64,000 nucleotides of DNA from a virus (IMGVR_UViG_3300032327_000348:1-64000); one strand, 5' to 3'; counted from the stretch's first letter, positions 3,531 through 55,583 are shown. Program-made: numbers and translations. The notes: generated by a model from the letters alone, not told the origin.

Positions 3531-3950
3531 TTAGATATCTCCAGCTTTACGATTCTCTGAATAATGAGCATCAAAAGTGCCACCAGGGTAGCGACTTTCT
3601 AGTTTACGCACATTCTCATCGATAACGTCATTTGGATCAAGATTCAATGCACGACAAGCATTAATCCAGTACCACATAACATCACCTAGCTCTCGCTTCA
3701 AGTGAAAGACTTCTGCATCTGTCAGTGGTTTACCTTGAAAAAACATTTTCTTGGGCACTTCGATAAATTCACCACCTTCAGCCGCTAGTCCAAGACAAGA
3801 TGTAAGTAGTAGTGGGACGTTGATATCAGGTCCTCCGTCGTTGCCGTCAAGTTCATCACAACGGTTCATAAATGTAGTCAAGTCATTGCTTGCTTTGCTG
3901 GTTACAGCCTCTACAAAATCTTTATATTTGTTCAAATCAATATTGTTCAT
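3531..3950 (-). CDS. mazG: MazG-like NTP pyrophosphohydrolase
   Basis: GLAAEGGEFIE, KRELGDVMWY, NVRKLESRYP. Confidence 0.85.
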   Translation of the reverse strand: MNNIDLNKYKDFVEAVTSKASNDLTTFMNRCDELDGNDGGPDINVPLLLTSCLGLAAEGGEFIEVPKKMFFQGKPLTDAEVFHLKRELGDVMWYWINACRALNLDPNDVIDENVRKLESRYPGGTFDAHYSENRKAGDI

Positions 3951-9073: not shown

Positions 9074-10456
9074 TTAAGCACCAGCAATAGTCACGATTGG
9101 GTTAGGCTGTCCACCGTATGTATTAGCGGCGTACGCTGTGTTGAATGTAGCGATAACATCAGGGTTAACACTGTTAACAACAGCAGTACCTGTGCCAGAA
9201 CCAGCACCAGTAGCAACGAATGAAACACCTGTCATGTTAGATGCTGCACCAACTGCTGCCCAGTTTGTATTACCTGAACTATAGATTGTGTATGTTGTAC
9301 CTGCAACTAATGAACCAGCTGCAACTTGTGTTGGGAAGATTTCAGAGTTGTAGCTATTAATACTAGCAACATACGCTGTACCAGAGGCTGCATCAGTAGA
9401 CAAGATATTGAATGTGTTTGGTGTCAATGCTGTGTTAGCGACATTAGCTGTATAGGCTGCACCTAGAGTACCAGTGACTGTACCTTGTACCAAGTACTTT
9501 GTCTTACCTTTTTGACGCACAATATAACCTGCTTCTGGTAGTGCTTGAATGAATGGATCACCTTGGCTAGTAACACCGGTTGCTCCATTTGCTGCATTAC
9601 CAGTCAACACAACTTGTTGTTGTGTTGCATTAGGAGTACCTGTTGCGTTAGTTAATGTAACTGCTGTACCGCCCGGGGTAGTCGCAACAGTAAATGCAGA
9701 TGCGTTAGCAACAGCCTTAACCCAATATGTTGTACCTGTGAATAAACCACCAATGTTAGCACTGAATGCTACAGGACCATCAACAACTAGAGTTTGTGCA
9801 TTACCACTTGTGCGAACAAAGTTACCCGTTGCTTGAGTGTTTGCAACAGCAACAGTTGTATTGCCACCTGTAGCCGATGTAGTACCAACTAATGTAACTG
9901 GTCCATTACCACCATCATATACTGCAAACAAGATTGTACCTGCGGCTACGTTTGCAAAATCAGTTCCTACACCAACTACTACGTTACTTGATGTATTTGC
10001 AATAATAGTACCTGTACCATTAGAACCAAATGCTACATTGCATAGAACTTGATTACCAATGATTGCTGTATTGCCACCAACTACACCATATGTATTGGCG
10101 TTTGTCGATGGGAAACCTGCACCAGATTCTGGATTGTTGAAGTATGCATCAACTACACCTACTGATGCAGAAACTGAACCACCGGTAGTATCAGATAATG
10201 CAACTGGTGTGCGTGTTGTGTTTGCACTTAAATCAGTAGCAGAAGCTGTGAAATTATTTGCATCAACGACTGTTAAAACCCAGTATGTTGTGTTAGATGT
10301 TAGACCACCAACTGATGTGGCTACCACGAATGGCATACCAGCGATAACGCCTAATGTTGTTAAGTTTTGTGATACGGTAACATAATCTGTTGCCGCTGTT
10401 GTATCAGTGATTGTTAAGACTGCTTGAGCCTTTGCGATTTTTAGAGGACGTCCCAT
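9074..10456 (-). CDS. Virion structural protein (A/G/T/N-rich)
   Basis: Late promoter, strong RBS, YIVRQKGKTKYLV motif, composition. Confidence 0.65.
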   Translation of the reverse strand: MGRPLKIAKAQAVLTITDTTAATDYVTVSQNLTTLGVIAGMPFVVATSVGGLTSNTTYWVLTVVDANNFTASATDLSANTTRTPVALSDTTGGSVSASVGVVDAYFNNPESGAGFPSTNANTYGVVGGNTAIIGNQVLCNVAFGSNGTGTIIANTSSNVVVGVGTDFANVAAGTILFAVYDGGNGPVTLVGTTSATGGNTTVAVANTQATGNFVRTSGNAQTLVVDGPVAFSANIGGLFTGTTYWVKAVANASAFTVATTPGGTAVTLTNATGTPNATQQQVVLTGNAANGATGVTSQGDPFIQALPEAGYIVRQKGKTKYLVQGTVTGTLGAAYTANVANTALTPNTFNILSTDAASGTAYVASINSYNSEIFPTQVAAGSLVAGTTYTIYSSGNTNWAAVGAASNMTGVSFVATGAGSGTGTAVVNSVNPDVIATFNTAYAANTYGGQPNPIVTIAGA

Positions 10457-10560
10457 TTGATTTTCCTTTGATAAAATTAGTGAGTTCTAGTCACTACGCA
10501 GTGGGGTACTGCATAAACTCTCCGAATGAGAGCGTATGAATTATTTATCAAAAATACGTA

Positions 10561-28899: not shown

Positions 28900-28922
28900 A
28901 AAAAAAGGGGACCTGAGTCCCC
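28900..28922 (-). terminator. Intrinsic terminator
   Basis: GGGGAC-TCAG-GTCCCC-T7. Confidence 0.8.
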
Positions 28923-28994
28923 AAAGAAATGAAACTTATCGAAGAGGACTTATTGACATTGCCTCTACGCACACTGCAGGGGTTAACCTTTTAT

Positions 28995-29105
28995 TTAAGA
29001 TTCATCTTCGCACGGTGCTGTCCAACCACATAGTTGGCAATGACGGGCACCCAGAGATCCAAGATACACACCGCAATCTTCATTTTGACAATACAGATAA
29101 CTCAT
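28995..29105 (-). CDS. 36-aa zinc-ribbon microprotein (early)
   Basis: MSYLYCQNEDCGVYLGSLGARHCQLCGWTAPCEDES; AGGTG RBS; perfect promoter upstream; not in ORF track. Confidence 0.6.
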   Translation of the reverse strand: MSYLYCQNEDCGVYLGSLGARHCQLCGWTAPCEDES

Positions 29106-29135
29106 TACGACACCTATTAGTGATTCAATACAAGT

Positions 29136-29164
29136 ATTATAGCACTATATCCATTTAATGTCAA
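29136..29164 (-). promoter_or_regulatory. Early sigma70-type promoter
   Basis: TTGACA-17-TATAAT followed by ACTTGTATTGA. Confidence 0.85.
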
Positions 29165-29172
29165 GTTTTGGC

Positions 29173-29261
29173 ATAAATAAAAGTGAGGGTCACGATGCGT
29201 CAACATCTACCCTCTCTAATGCTAAAGTATTACATTTAGGAGCACCAGCATGAATATTTAT
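29173..29261 (+). promoter_or_regulatory. Late promoter plus structured leader of GIY-YIG gene (copy 1)
   Basis: ATAAATAAAAGT-GAGGGT..GATG/CATC..ACCCTC-TCTAATGCT..AGGAGCACCAGC-ATGAATATTTAT; second copy at 40282-40359. Confidence 0.75.
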
Positions 29262-29885
29262 ACTAGAAAGAATCCTCCTACAGGGTTCTATGTTTACGCA
29301 TACTTGCGACAAGACAACACCCCTTATTACATCGGAAAAGGTCACTGCATCCGAGCATGGAATCAGCACGATAAAGGTATACACCCACCCAAAGATCAGA
29401 CAAAGATTGTCATACTTGAATCTAACTTAACTGACATAGGGGCATTAGCACTTGAAAGAAGAATGATTCGTTGGTATGGTCGCAGAGATACGAATACCGG
29501 AATTCTCAGAAACTTAACCGATGGCGGTGACGGTTCTGCTGGATATGTTCCGACAGAGGAAACAAGAATTAAAATAAGTATAGCAGGTAAAGGTAGAAAA
29601 TTAAAACCTAGAACTAAAGAGCACAGTGAAGCATTGAGCAAATCATTGACCGGCAGAAAGTTAAGCGAAGATCATATTGCTAAAATTAAAGGGAGACCTG
29701 CTTGGAATAAAGGACTAATTGGGCACTTCACACAATCTGAGGAATCAAACAACAAGAGGTCTGAGACACTCGCAGGAAGAGTTCCGTGGAATAAAGGAAA
29801 GTCTACGAATAAAGAGACCTTAGAGAAACAACAATTAGCAAGAGTAGGTAAGAAACGAGGTCCTTACAAAAAGAAAGGGGCATAA
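29250..29885 (+). mobile_element. Free-standing GIY-YIG homing endonuclease with NUMOD3/PWNKG tail
   Basis: FYVYAYLR..PYYIGKG..RAW, ERRMI, LRNLTDGGDG; inverted relative to neighbours. Confidence 0.85.
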
Positions 29886-29894
29886 GCCCCTATC

Positions 29895-38582: not shown

Positions 38583-39641
38583 TTAACTCATGACCGCAAA
38601 AAACGGCAATGGAGCGACAAATTCATCGTGGTCACGAATCTGATTCTCTAAATCAAAGTGATAATCACTTAATTGCTGTAACATTCGTGTTACTAATAAA
38701 CTAGCCATGATCAAATCATCTGTATCACCAATCTTAGCCGCATAACTACCACCATGTGCCACAAATGCTTTTAATTCACTGATAAGACTACGACTATTTA
38801 TGGTCATTTTCTTACTTTCAACTAGAGTCTTAAACTTAGCGCAACTTGCTAGTTTACTCTTATTAGTTGTGTTGAATCCTCTACGACCTTTACCGGTTTC
38901 ACTGATAAAGATACCCGGAATACCTGATTCTCCGTATTCATTTAATGATACGATAGCGGCTTCACCAATACCATTACATTCAATACTGTAATAGATATTG
39001 TTAGGTTCTCCTGTACATTCTGCTATGTACTTGTTAATCTGAGACAATAATTTGATTTGGCTTGGAATGTCAGTTTTATTATGTTTCCATTCACCAATCT
39101 GTTTAGTAGTATTTGCTTCAAATATCTGAATAGCGGCTGGGTCACCACCTGTACCAAGACTTGGATCTAAACCTACACAATATAGATTACCCTTCTTAGG
39201 TGTGTCATACCAACGAACTTGTCCTATACGACTGACAGGTTCTATACCTTCCAGTGCAATTAATGTATTTGGATTGATAAGTGTTTCATCGGCAATAATA
39301 AATTCGCAATTGGAGCATAAAATTCCATTAGCATAAAATCTTTTATTATTTCCAACATTCACTAGATCATATACGGTTTCAATAGCATTTTCTTTTATTG
39401 ATATTACCTTCTGTACTCCGGCGGTTGTCCTAATTAATGCTCCGGCTGTAAGTTGTTCTACTCTTACCTTCTCGTATGACTCTGTAAATATTTCATGATC
39501 CGGAGTCAGTATTATTTGAGAATTCTCTAAAGTTAGAATAACAGTATGCATAACGCCTTTATTAACTAGGCCATCAAATGTCTGCCATCCTGAATCTGTT
39601 AAAACTTCCAAACCTAATTTATTTTTTAGTAACTCTACCAT
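38583..39641 (-). CDS. terL: Terminase large subunit C-terminal (nuclease) half fused behind split-intein IntC
   Basis: aa1-111 intein (TPDH block B; VYDL..RFYANGILCSN), then CEFIIAD...GLDPSLGTGGD...IECNGIG...DDLIMA. Confidence 0.9.
   Translation of the reverse strand: MVELLKNKLGLEVLTDSGWQTFDGLVNKGVMHTVILTLENSQIILTPDHEIFTESYEKVRVEQLTAGALIRTTAGVQKVISIKENAIETVYDLVNVGNNKRFYANGILCSNCEFIIADETLINPNTLIALEGIEPVSRIGQVRWYDTPKKGNLYCVGLDPSLGTGGDPAAIQIFEANTTKQIGEWKHNKTDIPSQIKLLSQINKYIAECTGEPNNIYYSIECNGIGEAAIVSLNEYGESGIPGIFISETGKGRRGFNTTNKSKLASCAKFKTLVESKKMTINSRSLISELKAFVAHGGSYAAKIGDTDDLIMASLLVTRMLQQLSDYHFDLENQIRDHDEFVAPLPFFAVMS
39309..39641 (-). other. Split intein, C-terminal fragment (111 aa)
   Basis: Blocks B, F, G; terminal Ser-Asn followed by Cys+1 (39306-39308). 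Confidence 0.88.
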
Positions 39642-40293
39642 TTACAAACCCTTCGTGTTGCATTCCTTCTCTGAATTGTCTATTTTCTTTTCCATTATTA
39701 AACCATCTTAATCCTTTTTTGGATTGATTAGTTATTAATCGGCCTGCATTAAATCCTGCAGGTATAATGTCCCCGTAATATTCAGTTGTACCATCATTAA
39801 ACCATTTTTTACTTAAACTTGTACCTATTCTTCCTTTTTGTGCAATGCTTATATTTTTACACCTGACAGGATCTTTTAAATAATCATAATGATTTGGTTT
39901 AGACCTTGATTTGCGCTGAGATTCTCTTTCATCATCTGACCATAATGTTCCTTTATTGCGGCCGCCGTGTCCGGGTAATGTCAGACCCTTATTCCAGGGA
40001 ACACTATTTGTAGTTCCTTCGCCTCCGTCAGTTCTATTTCTCAAAATGCCGGTGCCTAAATCTTTTCTACCGTACCATTGAATCATCCGTCTTTCTAATG
40101 CAATAGCCCCTATTTCAGTAAGTTCTTGTTCTAAAATAGTAATATTATTATATGATGGGCGTTTAATATTTTCGTGTAATTGCCAAGCTCGTTTATTTTT
40201 ACCCTTACCAATATAATACGGTGTTCCGTCTGGCCTAAGATATGCATACACATAATATCCTGCAGGAATACGGTGAGGTGAATAAATAGTCAT
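39619..40293 (-). mobile_element. GIY-YIG homing endonuclease between the two terL halves
   Basis: YYVYAYLRPDGTPYYIGKG..RAW, LRNRTDGGEG, WFNDG/WFNNG repeats; start inferred from RBS GGGAG. Confidence 0.85.
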
Positions 40294-40359
40294 GCTGATG
40301 CTCCCTAAAGCGTTAGAGTAGTTGGGAACGCCAATTCCGCGAACTACACTTTTATTTAT
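40282..40359 (-). promoter_or_regulatory. Late promoter plus structured leader of GIY-YIG gene (copy 2)
   Basis: ATAAATAAAAGT-GTAGTT..GGAA/TTCC..AACTAC-TCTAACGCT..GGGAGCATCAGC-ATGACTATTTAT. Confidence 0.75.
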
Positions 40360-41275
40360 CATCATTTAACATTTTCTCTAACTCTGCCATAGTAGCAGTA
40401 ATAACATTACCCGACGGATCTCTTAGAGTCATTTTAGTACTACCGTCGAAGCAACCAATCTCTCGATTGAAACGATCCTCACCAAGTTGAGCCTTCATCT
40501 CTTTAGCCCATTGGTCGTCACGGCCAGGTTGTTCATTCCAGTATGCTCTATAAGAACGGAATCCATTAACACCTAGTTCAGTTGTATTACCAAACTCATC
40601 TTCTGTCTTATTAGCACCTTTCCAGATCAATGCGAACTGATCCTCATCACTGTTTGGTGTGCTTGTGATAATAGCTTTACCACCAGTTGACAATGTAGGA
40701 GTAATAGCTGTCCAGAATTCTTTAGCGATACTTGGCCTAACGAACGCAAACTCGTCCAGATACAATAGTGTAATAGACATACCACGACCTGTGTTTTCAG
40801 TAGTTGTCGCACTAACAATACGACTACCGTTTTCAAAGTCTAGTGAACCTTTGTTATATGTCGTAACACCTGCTTTAATATAATCGGGACAGTTTTCATA
40901 TGCATATCGTATTCGTTGCATAATCTCCTGAGCACCTGTATACTTGTGTGCCGCAACTAAGATAGTACTGTCTGGTACAAACATGGCGTACCATAGCAAG
41001 TATCCGGCGGCTGACGTTGACTTACCTGATTGTCGAGGCATCAAACTAATAGAGAAACGATAATTGTGATATGTTTCAATCAATCGTTGTTGATAGGGCC
41101 AAGGATGATAAACCATACTACCCTTTGTAGGATGTTGTATCATAAAGAAGTTATCCATAAAGTATAGATAACCTGTATCCGGGTCACAGCATTTGATAAA
41201 ATCCTGTAGTTCTTTATCAGTTTTGAAAACTGTTTTAGTATAGGGATTTTTTACTAGTGATGGTGCATTACTCAT
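40352..41275 (-). CDS. terL: Terminase large subunit N-terminal (ATPase) half ending in split-intein IntN
   Basis: PRQSGKS Walker A, YLDEFAF Walker B, ITSTPN; ...RFNREIG|CFDGSTKM... Confidence 0.92.
   Translation of the reverse strand: MSNAPSLVKNPYTKTVFKTDKELQDFIKCCDPDTGYLYFMDNFFMIQHPTKGSMVYHPWPYQQRLIETYHNYRFSISLMPRQSGKSTSAAGYLLWYAMFVPDSTILVAAHKYTGAQEIMQRIRYAYENCPDYIKAGVTTYNKGSLDFENGSRIVSATTTENTGRGMSITLLYLDEFAFVRPSIAKEFWTAITPTLSTGGKAIITSTPNSDEDQFALIWKGANKTEDEFGNTTELGVNGFRSYRAYWNEQPGRDDQWAKEMKAQLGEDRFNREIGCFDGSTKMTLRDPSGNVITATMAELEKMLNDDK
40355..40453 (-). other. Split intein, N-terminal fragment (33 aa)
   Basis: Block A CFDGSTKMTLRD, then TMAELEK and stop. Confidence 0.85.
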
Positions 41276-41314
41276 AGTGAGTATTTAGTTTGGGTGGTGT
41301 TCCCAAACTAATAT

Positions 41315-42631
41315 TTATGCGCTATAATATACACCAAATTCAGTGGCTTTAACTGTAACATAGGAATTGCCGGCAGATGGAGCAGTAGTAACCTCAACAT
41401 AAATGCGGCTGGTTCCTGGATACCGTCCAGCAGTGTAACTACCTGGTGCAATTGAGTTGGTTGTAAGACTTTGACCAGTCACTACTAAATTTGGTTGATT
41501 GGCTATATTACTATCTTTAGTAACCAACAATTTAGTTATTTCAGTATAGGTATCATTGTTACCATCGTATTGAATAATTACTGTTAAATCAGTGGCAATA
41601 ACACTGTCATCAGTAGTCAAATAAATTATTTTCGGCGAATTTGCTTCTGCAATAATTTGTCCTGTTCCAGGAACAATATCTAATACGACACCGTCAATAC
41701 TTGTTCGTATTTGAGAGCCCGGGAAAGTTACTGCACCGGTGTTATCAAATACTAAATGTTTATAGTCAGCCGGGTCATTGGCACTAAAATTAGTTGTTAG
41801 AGTAAGTTGAGTATCTCCTATAATTTCACTTGAGGCAGCATGAATAATAACACTATTCCCACTATCACTCTTAAAGTTGAAATAATCAGTCCAGGCCGCA
41901 TAATCAGTAAGAGCACCGTTTGAAAATCTTGAAACAATGGCAGGATCATATCCTCCCTGTATAAATGTTATAGGATCACCTACCGGATAATAAGTGTGAT
42001 TGTTAGGGTCATTTGGGAACGTTAGAGTACCATCATCGCCAAAAGTCCAAACATTAGCATTGCCGGCTACACTCAGATTAATATTGCCATTTTCAGCAAG
42101 CGTTAGAGTAGTATTACCGGATATCAAGTTTGCTTGTAATCCTGTAGCACCGTTGACTTCTAAAATTCCGTCATTAACTGTAATTTCAGCAGTATTAGCA
42201 GTATTAGCACTGTCAGTAATATAGATAGTACCAGGACCTAACCACAAGTTCGCCCAACGATGCGTTTCGTCACCTAAAAAGTATGTGTTATCTGCTACAG
42301 GTATTACATTGGCAGTTGTAAATGTGTTATTAGCAAATGACAGATTTGCTGAAGCACCAAATAGATTACCACCAGCATTAAGTTGAATTGCACCAACTGC
42401 ACCAGCAGGTTCACTATTTCCAGAACCTCCTCCGGTATTGATTAGTTGTAGATTTCCGTTAGTATCACCGATATAGATATCGTTGTTATTAAGATTAACT
42501 ACTATTTCACCAGGACGAGCATTACCATCGTAGTTACTGATAGTCTCTTCCTGATTGTCTTTCATTATTGTTCTGGTAATACCAGTAATGTTTGCGTACG
42601 GTGGAGGTGGATTAGCCATAAAAATACTCAC
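41315..42631 (-). CDS. Virion fibre / structural protein
   Basis: GAIQLNAGG, YFLGDETHRWANLW, WTFGDDGTLTFP motifs of fibre proteins. Confidence 0.6.
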   Translation of the reverse strand: MSIFMANPPPPYANITGITRTIMKDNQEETISNYDGNARPGEIVVNLNNNDIYIGDTNGNLQLINTGGGSGNSEPAGAVGAIQLNAGGNLFGASANLSFANNTFTTANVIPVADNTYFLGDETHRWANLWLGPGTIYITDSANTANTAEITVNDGILEVNGATGLQANLISGNTTLTLAENGNINLSVAGNANVWTFGDDGTLTFPNDPNNHTYYPVGDPITFIQGGYDPAIVSRFSNGALTDYAAWTDYFNFKSDSGNSVIIHAASSEIIGDTQLTLTTNFSANDPADYKHLVFDNTGAVTFPGSQIRTSIDGVVLDIVPGTGQIIAEANSPKIIYLTTDDSVIATDLTVIIQYDGNNDTYTEITKLLVTKDSNIANQPNLVVTGQSLTTNSIAPGSYTAGRYPGTSRIYVEVTTAPSAGNSYVTVKATEFGVYYSA

Positions 42632-42663
42632 TTGTTAGTGAGTATTTATCAAAGTTTTTAAAT

Positions 42664-55261: not shown

Positions 55262-55583
55262 GCTATTTTTGGTTACAAGGTATAACTACCTCGCTATTAG
55301 GCGTTTGCTGCCAATAGGAATTGTGAATCGTTTGCGATTACTTTGTTGTGCTTCTGCGACCGGGTCACCCCAATCCTAACGGCTTCTACATTGCCGGACT
55401 GTCCATTTCCGTACTCTTGACCCAATCGATCCTGTGTCAGGCCCATTAGAAAGTACACTAGCACCAGCAACCGGATCAGTGGCGGGGAATCGAACCCACG
55501 TTGATAGTGTACTTACTGGTGGACCCGGCGGGCACTGCCCCCGCGTCTTGAATCCTTTTCTATCTACTTCATACAGTCTTAAC
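55262..55583 (-). ncRNA. ssrA: Circularly permuted (two-piece) tmRNA
   Basis: Acceptor piece ends GCGGG-GGCAGTG-CCCGC-CGGGTCCACCA (55517); coding piece starts GGGCCTGACACAGGATCGA (55444); G3.U70 pair; tag ANDSQFLLAANA* at 55335-55297. Confidence 0.9.

Follow-up and report, generated by a model that had tools for sequence, protein, structure and literature searches.

What is the structured stretch that precedes two homing endonuclease genes of an uncultured phage, and which of its two strands carries the structure? The question is raised by a window of 64,000 nt, the first 64 kb of the 112-kb IMG/VR virus record IMGVR_UViG_3300032327_000348 (CheckV completeness ~32%). One series of elements stands at 29173-29261 on the + strand (copy 1) and, in identical order, from 40359 down to 40282 on the - strand (copy 2). 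A sequence-only reading of this window had described the series as a structured mRNA leader shared by two GIY-YIG genes. We found two covarying helices, which very probably belong to the strand antisense to the endonuclease message. The same unit was found in front of nuclease genes of other families. We propose that it serves the free-standing homing endonuclease genes of T4-like and jumbo phages as a portable cassette of ~85 bp that controls their expression.

The sequence was re-read, and all elements listed earlier were present in both copies. Copy 1 opens on the + strand with a 5′ element that includes a late-promoter motif (ATAAATAAAAGT, 29173-29184). It is followed by the stem P1 (GAGGGT at 29185-29190, pairing with ACCCTC at 29209-29214), CAC (29191-29193), the stem P2 (GATG at 29194-29197, pairing with CATC at 29204-29207, loop 29198-29203) and a lone pyrimidine T (29208). 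Next come the TCTAAYGCT element (TCTAATGCT, 29215-29223), a spacer (29224-29238), the Shine-Dalgarno-side element (GGAGCACCAGC, 29239-29249) and the start of the open reading frame (ORF; ATGAATATTTAT, 29250-29261). A gapped pattern gave only two matches in the 112-kb record, and its reversed control none. Using a covariance model, copy 2 was scored at 93.7 bits (E = 2e-21; 40279-40362, + strand) and copy 1 at 80 bits (E = 8e-18), and no third copy was detected in the record. The two window matches are not due to chance.

Covariation was assessed in two sets of leaders. A MAFFT alignment of 87 leaders was built on the mRNA strand, and 66 distinct leaders were gathered through protein homology only. 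In the 87 leaders, the hairpin made of P1 and P2, here called stem-loop 2 (SL2), was compensatory at 10 of 11 pairs; 94.8% of the cells paired, whereas shuffles reached 74% and slid controls no more than 48%. A further helix, stem-loop 1 (SL1), lies between SL2 and the ORF start. With both helices taken together, 98.4% of the cells paired in the 66 leaders (75.6% for shuffles, 44% or less for slid controls), compensatory change being present at 18 of 20 pairs. For SL2 alone these values were 97.3% and 12 of 12 pairs; for SL1, 100% and 6 of 8 pairs, one G.U being invariant in 66/66. Copies outside the exact search patterns carried up to four simultaneous compensatory swaps in SL1, such as GCUGUGAUU/AAUCAUAG and CUGU-GAUU/AAUC-AUAG. 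On the counts from both sets, the covariation that had been claimed for this element is genuine.

The strand was determined from the imperfect pairs. Non-standard cells in the 87-leader alignment were A.C or C.A in 40 cases versus G.U in 2, and 11 of 19 distinct stem haplotypes contained A.C when read on the mRNA strand, while none contained G.U. An A.C mismatch on the mRNA strand is a G.U wobble on the complementary strand. Counted on the antisense strand, the 66 leaders contained 161 G.U versus 12 A.C cells, all 12 at two apical pairs. When 65 distinct hairpins were folded both ways, the antisense fold was more stable in 49. From GCUG to the end of SL2, the mean energy over the 66 leaders was -17.9 kcal/mol on the antisense strand versus -12.5 kcal/mol on its complement, an advantage of 5.3 kcal/mol, and the antisense fold was more stable in 63 of the 66 (Wilcoxon P = 2e-12). 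The structure very probably belongs to the antisense strand. Its description as a structured mRNA leader was given up on account of the wobble counts, the folds and the invariant G.U of SL1, which is a mismatch on the mRNA.

Following folding of the antisense strand, both window copies gave two hairpins and a free U tail. SL1 is formed between the complements of AGCAYCAG and CTAAYGCT, and its loop holds an anti-Shine-Dalgarno sequence. The two conserved sequences that had been taken for linkers (TCTAAYGCT and AGCAYCAG) are thus correctly positioned but are the arms of this helix. Both Y positions are purines opposite U on the antisense strand. Because a purine faces U, the Y variation is neutral there (A-U or G.U) but creates A.C on the mRNA. 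Covariation between the two Y positions (TCTAAYGCT versus AGCAYCAGC) was also looked for on the mRNA strand and was not found, both being R opposite U on the antisense strand. In SL2, a CRC bulge and one unpaired pyrimidine had likewise been placed correctly, but the middle base of the former pairs with the latter (G-C in 65, A-U in 8, or A.C on the + strand).

In copy 1 (- strand), SL1 occupies 29216..29248, with arms at 29248-29241 (CUGGUGCU) and 29223-29216 (AGCAUUAG) and the anti-Shine-Dalgarno in the loop, and is present in the minimum-energy fold of that strand. SL2 occupies 29185..29214 and consists of 6 bp, a bulged G, an R-Y pair, a bulged G and 4-5 bp. Directly past it lies the U-rich tail ACUUUUAUUUAU (29173..29184), which complements the sense promoter and is the proposed terminator tract. 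In copy 2 (+ strand), SL1 occupies 40295..40316 and pairs CUGAUGCU (40295-40302) with AGCGUUAG (40309-40316) around the loop CCCUAA. It is followed by SL2 (40318..40347) and the tail ACUUUUAUUUAU (40348..40359). Both helices of this copy were present in the minimum-energy fold and lie within the covariance-model match.

The ATAAATA in the 5′ element is a phage late-promoter motif and not part of an RNA fold. According to the ORF list, the - strand carries nearly all genes of the window. ATAAATA occurs 23 times on this strand; 13 sites have an ORF that opens with ATG and is 80 aa or longer no more than 60 nt downstream, and 16 have one no more than 120 nt downstream. The motif lies 12-55 nt 5′ of 13 - strand ORFs. 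On the + (non-coding) strand the motif is scarce, with 9 sites versus ~17 expected per strand, of which three precede + strand ORFs and two belong to the two cassettes. Because of this placement upstream of ORFs and this strand bias, ATAAATA (more loosely, NTAAATA) was treated as the putative T4-type late promoter of the phage. It agrees with the late promoters of T4 (TATAAATA) and of cyanomyoviruses (NATAAATA) (PMC2984593). The phage has a large terminase of T4 type, with its nearest relatives, at 57% identity, in PA5oct-like and other jumbo phages; a literature search for PA5oct-type late promoters yielded nothing usable.

In copy 1, the sense ATAAATA for the endonuclease mRNA lies at 29173..29179 (+), with a predicted start near G29185, the first base of the hairpin. 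In copy 2 it lies at 40353..40359 (-) and contains the stop codon (GAT AAA TAA) of the ORF encoding the N-terminal half of the large terminase and an intein fragment (TerL-N/IntN). NTAAATA was found 3-6 nt ahead of the hairpin in nearly all copies, also in leaders collected without requiring a promoter.

An inverted ATAAATA, read as TATTTAT on the mRNA strand, lies over codons 2-4 of the endonuclease ORF. It is located at 29255..29261 (-) in copy 1, 5 nt before G(29249), and at 40282..40288 (+) in copy 2, where an antisense RNA is predicted to start near G40294. ORFs of all families either start with M-x-I-Y or hold TATTTA in another frame (M-I-F-I, M-Y-L, M-L-F). TATTTAT stands a constant 5 nt past CAGC in three reading frames and is not fixed relative to the ATG. 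Among 115 M-x-I-Y ORFs, the third base of codon 2 was T in all 115, though the amino acid varies. Ile was encoded by ATT in 111 (versus 38% elsewhere in the same ORFs, P = 2e-41) and Tyr by TAT in 103 (versus 69% elsewhere, P = 2e-7). The ORF start is a nucleic-acid element. On the antisense strand, ATAAATA is followed by 5 nt and a conserved G that precedes SL1; the geometry of the sense promoter is alike, with ATAAATA, 5 nt and a conserved G that opens the hairpin. The two motifs also vary alike, with A, C or G before TAAATA. The inner ATAAATA is proposed to be the late promoter of the antisense RNA and would fire from this position.

The extent of the cassette was determined in IMG/VR. The pattern ATAAATAAAAGT-N24-36-TCTAAYGCT was matched by at least 118 stretches, and a second pattern, constraining the Shine-Dalgarno side only, by at least 120, mostly at loci not already found. 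More than 200 phage loci in IMG/VR carry the cassette, and copies outside both patterns were added by the covariance model. For a sample blind to the leader, 11 class-1 endonucleases were aligned (alignment A4) and relatives were fetched by protein similarity; among the best 80 of at least 582, the cassette abutted the ORF start in 67 as judged by the covariance model. No Rfam 15 family was detected at either copy by a gathering-score scan of the window, and at E≤10 the two loci yielded only two chance snoRNA matches, elsewhere; the motif is unlisted, as had been suspected. No match was obtained by blastn of copy 1 with its flanks, or of a consensus-like cassette, against 50,697 GenBank phages, and the cassette is so far confined to uncultured phages. 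In 596 Gb of bacterial genomes, one of 120 sampled matches to the Shine-Dalgarno-side pattern was true and the rest were chance, giving no host clue. The true match (L335) among these bacterial or archaeal assemblies is CAIYAG010000327.1, a 2214-nt contig in an uncultured Bacteroidetes metagenome-assembled genome, probably a mis-binned phage fragment.

Downstream proteins were clustered by their first 100 residues; full-length clustering merged families via shared C-terminal DNA-binding modules. The first 100 residues of 161 downstream ORFs formed five large groups and several singletons. Group representatives were assigned by Pfam to NUMOD3-bearing GIY-YIG-like proteins, SegE-type and canonical GIY-YIG, HNH and HNH_3, TnsA-like PD-(D/E)xK, and DUF7487. 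By these assignments, the cassette fronts at least three unrelated nuclease folds (GIY-YIG, HNH and TnsA-like). The leaders of loci L032 and L036 are identical over 77 nt, from ATAAATA to the first ORF bases, with an HNH_3 ORF behind one and a GIY-YIG-like ORF behind the other. One leader thus stands ahead of unrelated ORFs, and the module must have passed between endonuclease genes that are not related to each other. As the sequence-only reading had it, the element is portable and accompanies endonuclease genes, but its tie to one nuclease family is lost, HNH, HNH_3, TnsA-like and DUF7487 proteins being served too.

Further observations bear on its mobility. At L032:8313-8406 and L036:616-709, the switch point lies directly past TATTTAT, a footprint of cassette exchange. 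Two or more cassettes were found within a few kb in one contig (L060:1781-1833 and 3622-3674) and also in L011, L113, L179, L229, L231 and L304; some multi-cassette contigs carry identical hairpins at tandem endonuclease genes. Relic copies (L006, L033, L072:421-498, L097 and L040:10987-11066; model scores 43-47 bits) keep the sense promoter, SL2 and TCTAATGCT and have lost the Shine-Dalgarno/SL1 5′ arm and the endonuclease.

A mechanism may be proposed as follows. The cassette would be bounded by two inverted, facing NTAAATA late promoters ~80 bp apart, that is, convergent ones. Transcription from the outer promoter would yield the endonuclease mRNA, with the opening base of the hairpin as its 5′ end. 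The inner promoter, over codons 2-4 on the opposite strand, would give a cis-antisense RNA of ~65-70 nt consisting of a 5′-G, SL1, SL2 and the U-rich tail ACUUUUAUUUAU. SL1 would be formed by CUGRU(U)GCU with AGCRUUAG and carry the anti-Shine-Dalgarno CCUU in its loop. SL2, a covarying hairpin of 6+1+5 bp with two conserved bulged G, would terminate transcription together with the tail, which is T-rich in leaders gathered without requiring a tail. By construction, the antisense stretch is fully complementary to the whole 5′ untranslated region (UTR) of the endonuclease mRNA. By analogy with RNA-OUT of IS10 and Sok of hok/sok, the antisense RNA would pair with this 5′ UTR and lower, or otherwise tune, translation and stability of the nuclease message. 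The A.C mismatches on the mRNA would block formation of the SL1 complement, leaving the Shine-Dalgarno free, and termination of the antisense RNA would in addition shield the neighbouring host gene from antisense transcription. The opposite outcome may also apply: duplex formation is reported to protect from RNase E in Prochlorococcus during phage infection (PMC3113571).

That a separate small antisense RNA, made from convergent late promoters, regulates the endonuclease has in our estimate an even chance of being correct. The wider proposal, in which endonucleases of at least three folds exchange an antisense small-RNA cassette that acts as a brake of the RNA-OUT or type-I-antitoxin kind, the rapidly covarying SL2 stem giving each copy a specificity of its own, is put forward tentatively, at somewhat under even chances. 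Two functions suggested earlier fared less well. A small ribozyme was dropped, since no conserved catalytic-core-like features were found, and autorepression by the endonuclease is unlikely because unrelated proteins share the cassette.

Several points weigh against the antisense proposal. Firing of the inner ATAAATA, termination by SL2 and the tail, and the direction of regulation are all steps that we infer from sequence. A consensus terminator scan did not call SL2, the stem being interrupted and the tail a mixture of U and A. Genuine late promoters prefer G at the base ahead of ATAAATA, a preference that the inner motif does not show, and in a few cassettes that have both helices the inner motif is degraded (ATTAATA, ATATAGA). 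ATAAATA and TATTTAT are mutually complementary, so that a closing helix of the RNA or mere retention of an inverted repeat is possible. Both promoters would be of the late type, which leaves a simple temporal switch unexplained. As to the structure, the model to which two of the alignments (A3 and A5) were fitted had itself been derived from the antisense strand; the strand asymmetry was first found, independently of these, in the alignment made on the mRNA strand. The sequences are related, and cell counts overstate the number of independent events.

The hairpin might nevertheless act as a structured 5′ leader of the endonuclease mRNA, stabilising the late transcript or modulating translation, with A.C pairs tolerated. 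With the sense late promoter, the mRNA is predicted to begin exactly where the hairpin does. Most hairpins consist of Watson-Crick pairs throughout and could hence fold on either strand, and other late genes in the window have a hairpin just past ATAAATA (41285-41311 and near 42649). We nevertheless consider this quite improbable: on the mRNA strand A.C exceeds G.U by 40:2 and 161:12, the fold is weaker by the 5.3 kcal/mol given above, SL1 is mismatched in most copies (the invariant A.C and one or two others), and the SL2 hairpin leaves the Shine-Dalgarno untouched. T4-style temporal occlusion would have AUAAAUA of read-through transcripts pair with UAUUUAU (codons 2-4), closing a domain that encloses the start codon and blocking translation, while late transcripts, having no 5′ arm, would be translated. 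This logic is that of I-TevI, segB and Aeh1 mobE, and the documented T4 scheme likewise puts the late promoter inside the 5′ arm (PMC2988022). A 7-bp AUAAAUA/UAUUUAU closing helix is found in the minimum-energy folds of both copies, and Dassa et al. 2009 (PMC2677866) described hairpins including TATAAATA upstream of endonucleases in fractured genes. This closing helix is, however, all A-U and is missing from the copy 2 centroid fold and the alignment consensus fold, and the outer pair does not covary (CTAAATA occurs with TATTTAT, and ATAAATA with TATTTAG). With the Shine-Dalgarno unpaired in the occlusion fold and the antisense wobble pattern unexplained, we judge occlusion very improbable as the full explanation, although it could coexist with antisense control. 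Little credence is given to a structure of single-stranded DNA, in which the hairpins would fold in one strand at replication or recombination and be read by a protein. The model would be integron attC sites, which are hairpins with extrahelical bases. DNA also tolerates G.T better than A.C, the wobble pattern is strand-specific, and one arm has two invariant bulged bases, both G when read on the antisense strand, within a stem of variable sequence. However, no recombinase is associated with the cassette, nor does homing require one, and the U tail, the loop with its anti-Shine-Dalgarno and the promoter motif at the flank are all features that suit an RNA.

The gene neighbourhood allows one more explanation, namely that the hairpins form a terminator or insulator on the host-gene strand, which ends backward read-through from neighbouring genes, with no small RNA and no regulation of the nuclease. 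The cassette would then often add a sigma-70 or late promoter past the terminator, and insertion of the endonuclease in reverse would spare host operons. Cassette endonucleases are indeed mostly antisense to their neighbours (87 versus 51 upstream, 88 versus 38 downstream). On the host-gene strand, 28 of 91 other loci have TTGACN-16/18-TANNNT shortly past the U tract, the distance being ~8-17 nt in most, and many others have an ATAAATA late promoter there. Copy 1 has exactly this layout on the - strand, where the order is host gene, terminator (29876-29891), reversed endonuclease, SL1, SL2, U tract, promoter, 36-aa ORF and terminator, and the strand asymmetry would suit an insulator equally. 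Yet SL1, the synonymous conservation of TATTTAT and its 5-nt spacing to SL1 are left without account. In copy 1, the good bidirectional terminator at 29876-29891 already halts host transcripts ahead of the endonuclease gene. Copy 2 and its relatives (L024, L092 and L094) are co-oriented with terL, the antisense strand holding no host gene, and the structure is kept there with compensatory change. Insulation as the sole function is rather unlikely, but the hairpin may also, or only, insulate host transcription.

The promoter flanking copy 1 is a perfect TTGACA-17-TATAAT of the extended (TG) type (29136..29164, -), 8 nt past the U tract. It precedes the 36-aa ORF MSYLYCQNEDCGVYLGSLGARHCQLCGWTAPCEDES (29105-28995, -), which has a zinc-ribbon-like CxxC...CxxC arrangement. 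This ORF is followed by the strong terminator GGGGACTCAGGTCCCC-TTTTTTT (28922-28907, -). Promoter, ORF and terminator make up a compact early-type unit that adjoins copy 1 (28907-29164, -).

The copy 1 endonuclease ORF (29250..29885, +) encodes 211 aa with a GIY-YIG-like N-terminal domain and NUMOD3, and is antisense to both neighbouring genes. The copy 2 ORF (39619..40293, -) encodes 224 aa and is co-oriented with the two terminase gene halves that it separates. The two proteins are 59% identical over residues 1-101. Pfam GIY-YIG was matched by neither window ORF, copy 1 matching NUMOD3 only. In alignment A4, YVYAY...YYIGKG, R35, E69 and N88 are invariant, a weak profile match to PDB GIY-YIG chains was obtained (E = 0.03), and PHROG 314 ('homing endonuclease') was also matched. 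The earlier assignment of both ORFs to GIY-YIG is thus tentative, drawing on the motif, the weak PDB match and PHROG 314, but not on Pfam.

Around copy 2, terL is 'fractured' (38583-41275, -) into TerL-N (41275-40352), the endonuclease gene and TerL-C (39641-38583), the terminase halves matching Pfam Terminase_6N and Terminase_6C. TerL-N ends in a 33-aa intein N-fragment (CFDGSTKMTL...DDK*), and TerL-C opens with an intein C-fragment of ~107 aa ending in ...ANGILCSN/CEF. The first 110 aa of TerL-C match the atypically split intein VidaL (6vgv, E = 5e-7), and also CatC (6dsl, E = 3e-5). The features of an atypically split intein of the VidaL or AceL-TerL kind are thus all present (an N-fragment Cys, a C-fragment, a +1 Cys and sequence similarity). 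The endonuclease stop overlaps the TerL-C start by ~20 nt, as described for fractured genes.

Hairpins also adjoin ATAAATA at the phage's own late genes (41285-41318 and ~42610-42649, -). At terL (hairpin 41285-41311), a 10-bp stem directly follows the promoter; viewed on the + strand it is terminator-like and ends in TATTTAT. At 42649 (-), the stem takes in the last promoter bases and is followed by UUUUU on the same strand. Overlap of promoter and hairpin may be a general habit of this phage. Elsewhere in the window, a permuted tmRNA gene was found at 55297-55578 (-; Rfam tmRNA_permuted 85.8 bits, alpha_tmRNA 52 bits). The Rfam 'freshwater-2' motif was matched at 10454-10533 (-, 64.6 bits), beginning ~9 nt past an ATAAATA at 10542-10548; this position suggests that the orphan motif is a 5′ leader, belonging to the late transcript of a downstream ORF of 461 aa.

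For a homing endonuclease, too little expression would prevent spread and too much would harm the phage that carries it. To our knowledge, the control described for this balance operates through the timing of promoters and through hairpins in the mRNA, in a small number of T-even phages. If the antisense proposal is correct, a new and general control layer for selfish endonucleases would be added, serving hundreds of genes of different folds. The design would be compact: one stretch would serve as promoter and, on the opposite strand, as terminator tail, and another as promoter and codons. The cassette is a well-supported candidate for a new RNA family. In phage contigs from metagenomes it is a practical marker for locating free-standing endonuclease genes and delimiting them at the 5′ side. 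The cassette could also supply a small natural part for tuning the expression of toxic genes in phage engineering.

The cassette was compared with known systems. T4-type endonuclease control combines a late promoter with an mRNA hairpin that buries the ribosome-binding site, as in I-TevI, I-TevII, I-TevIII, segB and Aeh1 mobE (PMC2988022). The late promoter is shared, NTAAATA lying directly upstream in nearly all copies. For sequestration, only a weak 7-bp, all-A-U helix past the AUG was predicted, without covariation. The covarying hairpin ends 13-27 nt before GGAG. The earlier view that the element is distinct from the classic occluding hairpin is supported. Unlike T4-type control, the cassette folds its helices on the opposite strand, has a second helix and an inner inverted promoter, and is conserved in sequence across unrelated nucleases. 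It resembles the unusual seg43(25) hairpin of Aeromonas phage 25, where the hairpin likewise stands ahead of the Shine-Dalgarno and leaves it free.

The T4-like cyanophage S-PM2 has an antisense RNA of ~225 nt, CfrI, over a homing endonuclease gene (Millard et al. 2010, cited in PMC2984593). Both CfrI and the proposed cassette RNA overlap a free-standing endonuclease gene in a T4-like phage, S-PM2 using NATAAATA late promoters. CfrI, however, is ~3 times longer and spans from psbA to the endonuclease gene; it is known from a single phage, with no description of it as a portable cassette common to many nuclease families. No sequence relation is detectable, the cassette being matchless in the 50,697 GenBank phages. 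CfrI nonetheless shows, as a precedent, that an endonuclease gene of a T4-like phage can be covered by an antisense RNA.

The fractured genes of Dassa et al. 2009 (PMC2677866) have the setting of copy 2, which splits terL between the two halves of a split intein with the ORF overlap that these authors describe. They report conserved hairpins, a late-promoter motif and two mutually complementary motifs. The relic copies recall an endonuclease-less locus, still with its hairpin, in the same study (PMC2677866). Its authors read the element as an mRNA hairpin occluding the ribosome-binding site at 16 loci; their account includes neither statistics on covariation nor an analysis of the strand, and neither a second helix nor a promoter on the antisense strand. 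Compared thus by description only, their element may be the same as the cassette or a sister of it.

On many copies of our cassette, the host strand presents a hairpin, a U tract and TTGACA-17-TATAAT, in a PeSL-like order. PeSL promoter-stem-loop cassettes were reportedly described by Arbiol and colleagues in 2010 in T4-type phages, as early-promoter modules not tied to endonuclease starts. Both would be short mobile modules of stem-loop and promoter, repeated in plastic genome regions; this comparison is by description only.

IS10 RNA-OUT and Sok of hok/sok are cis-encoded antisense RNAs that control mobile-element nuclease, transposase or toxin genes. A conserved structure antisense to the target mRNA was likewise found here (18 of 20 pairs compensatory, -5.3 kcal/mol). 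Complementarity to the 5′ UTR with its ribosome-binding site and residence in a selfish element are also alike. Under the antisense proposal, the likeness would extend to a short RNA of stem-loops made from a promoter in or near the 5′ end of the target. No sequence or Rfam relation to either RNA exists, and the cassette differs in being known from sequence alone, in its putative convergent T4-type late promoters, in a tail that complements the sense promoter and in its homing endonuclease target. Cis-antisense control of a mobile-element nuclease is thus already known; its packaging as an exchangeable cassette would be new.

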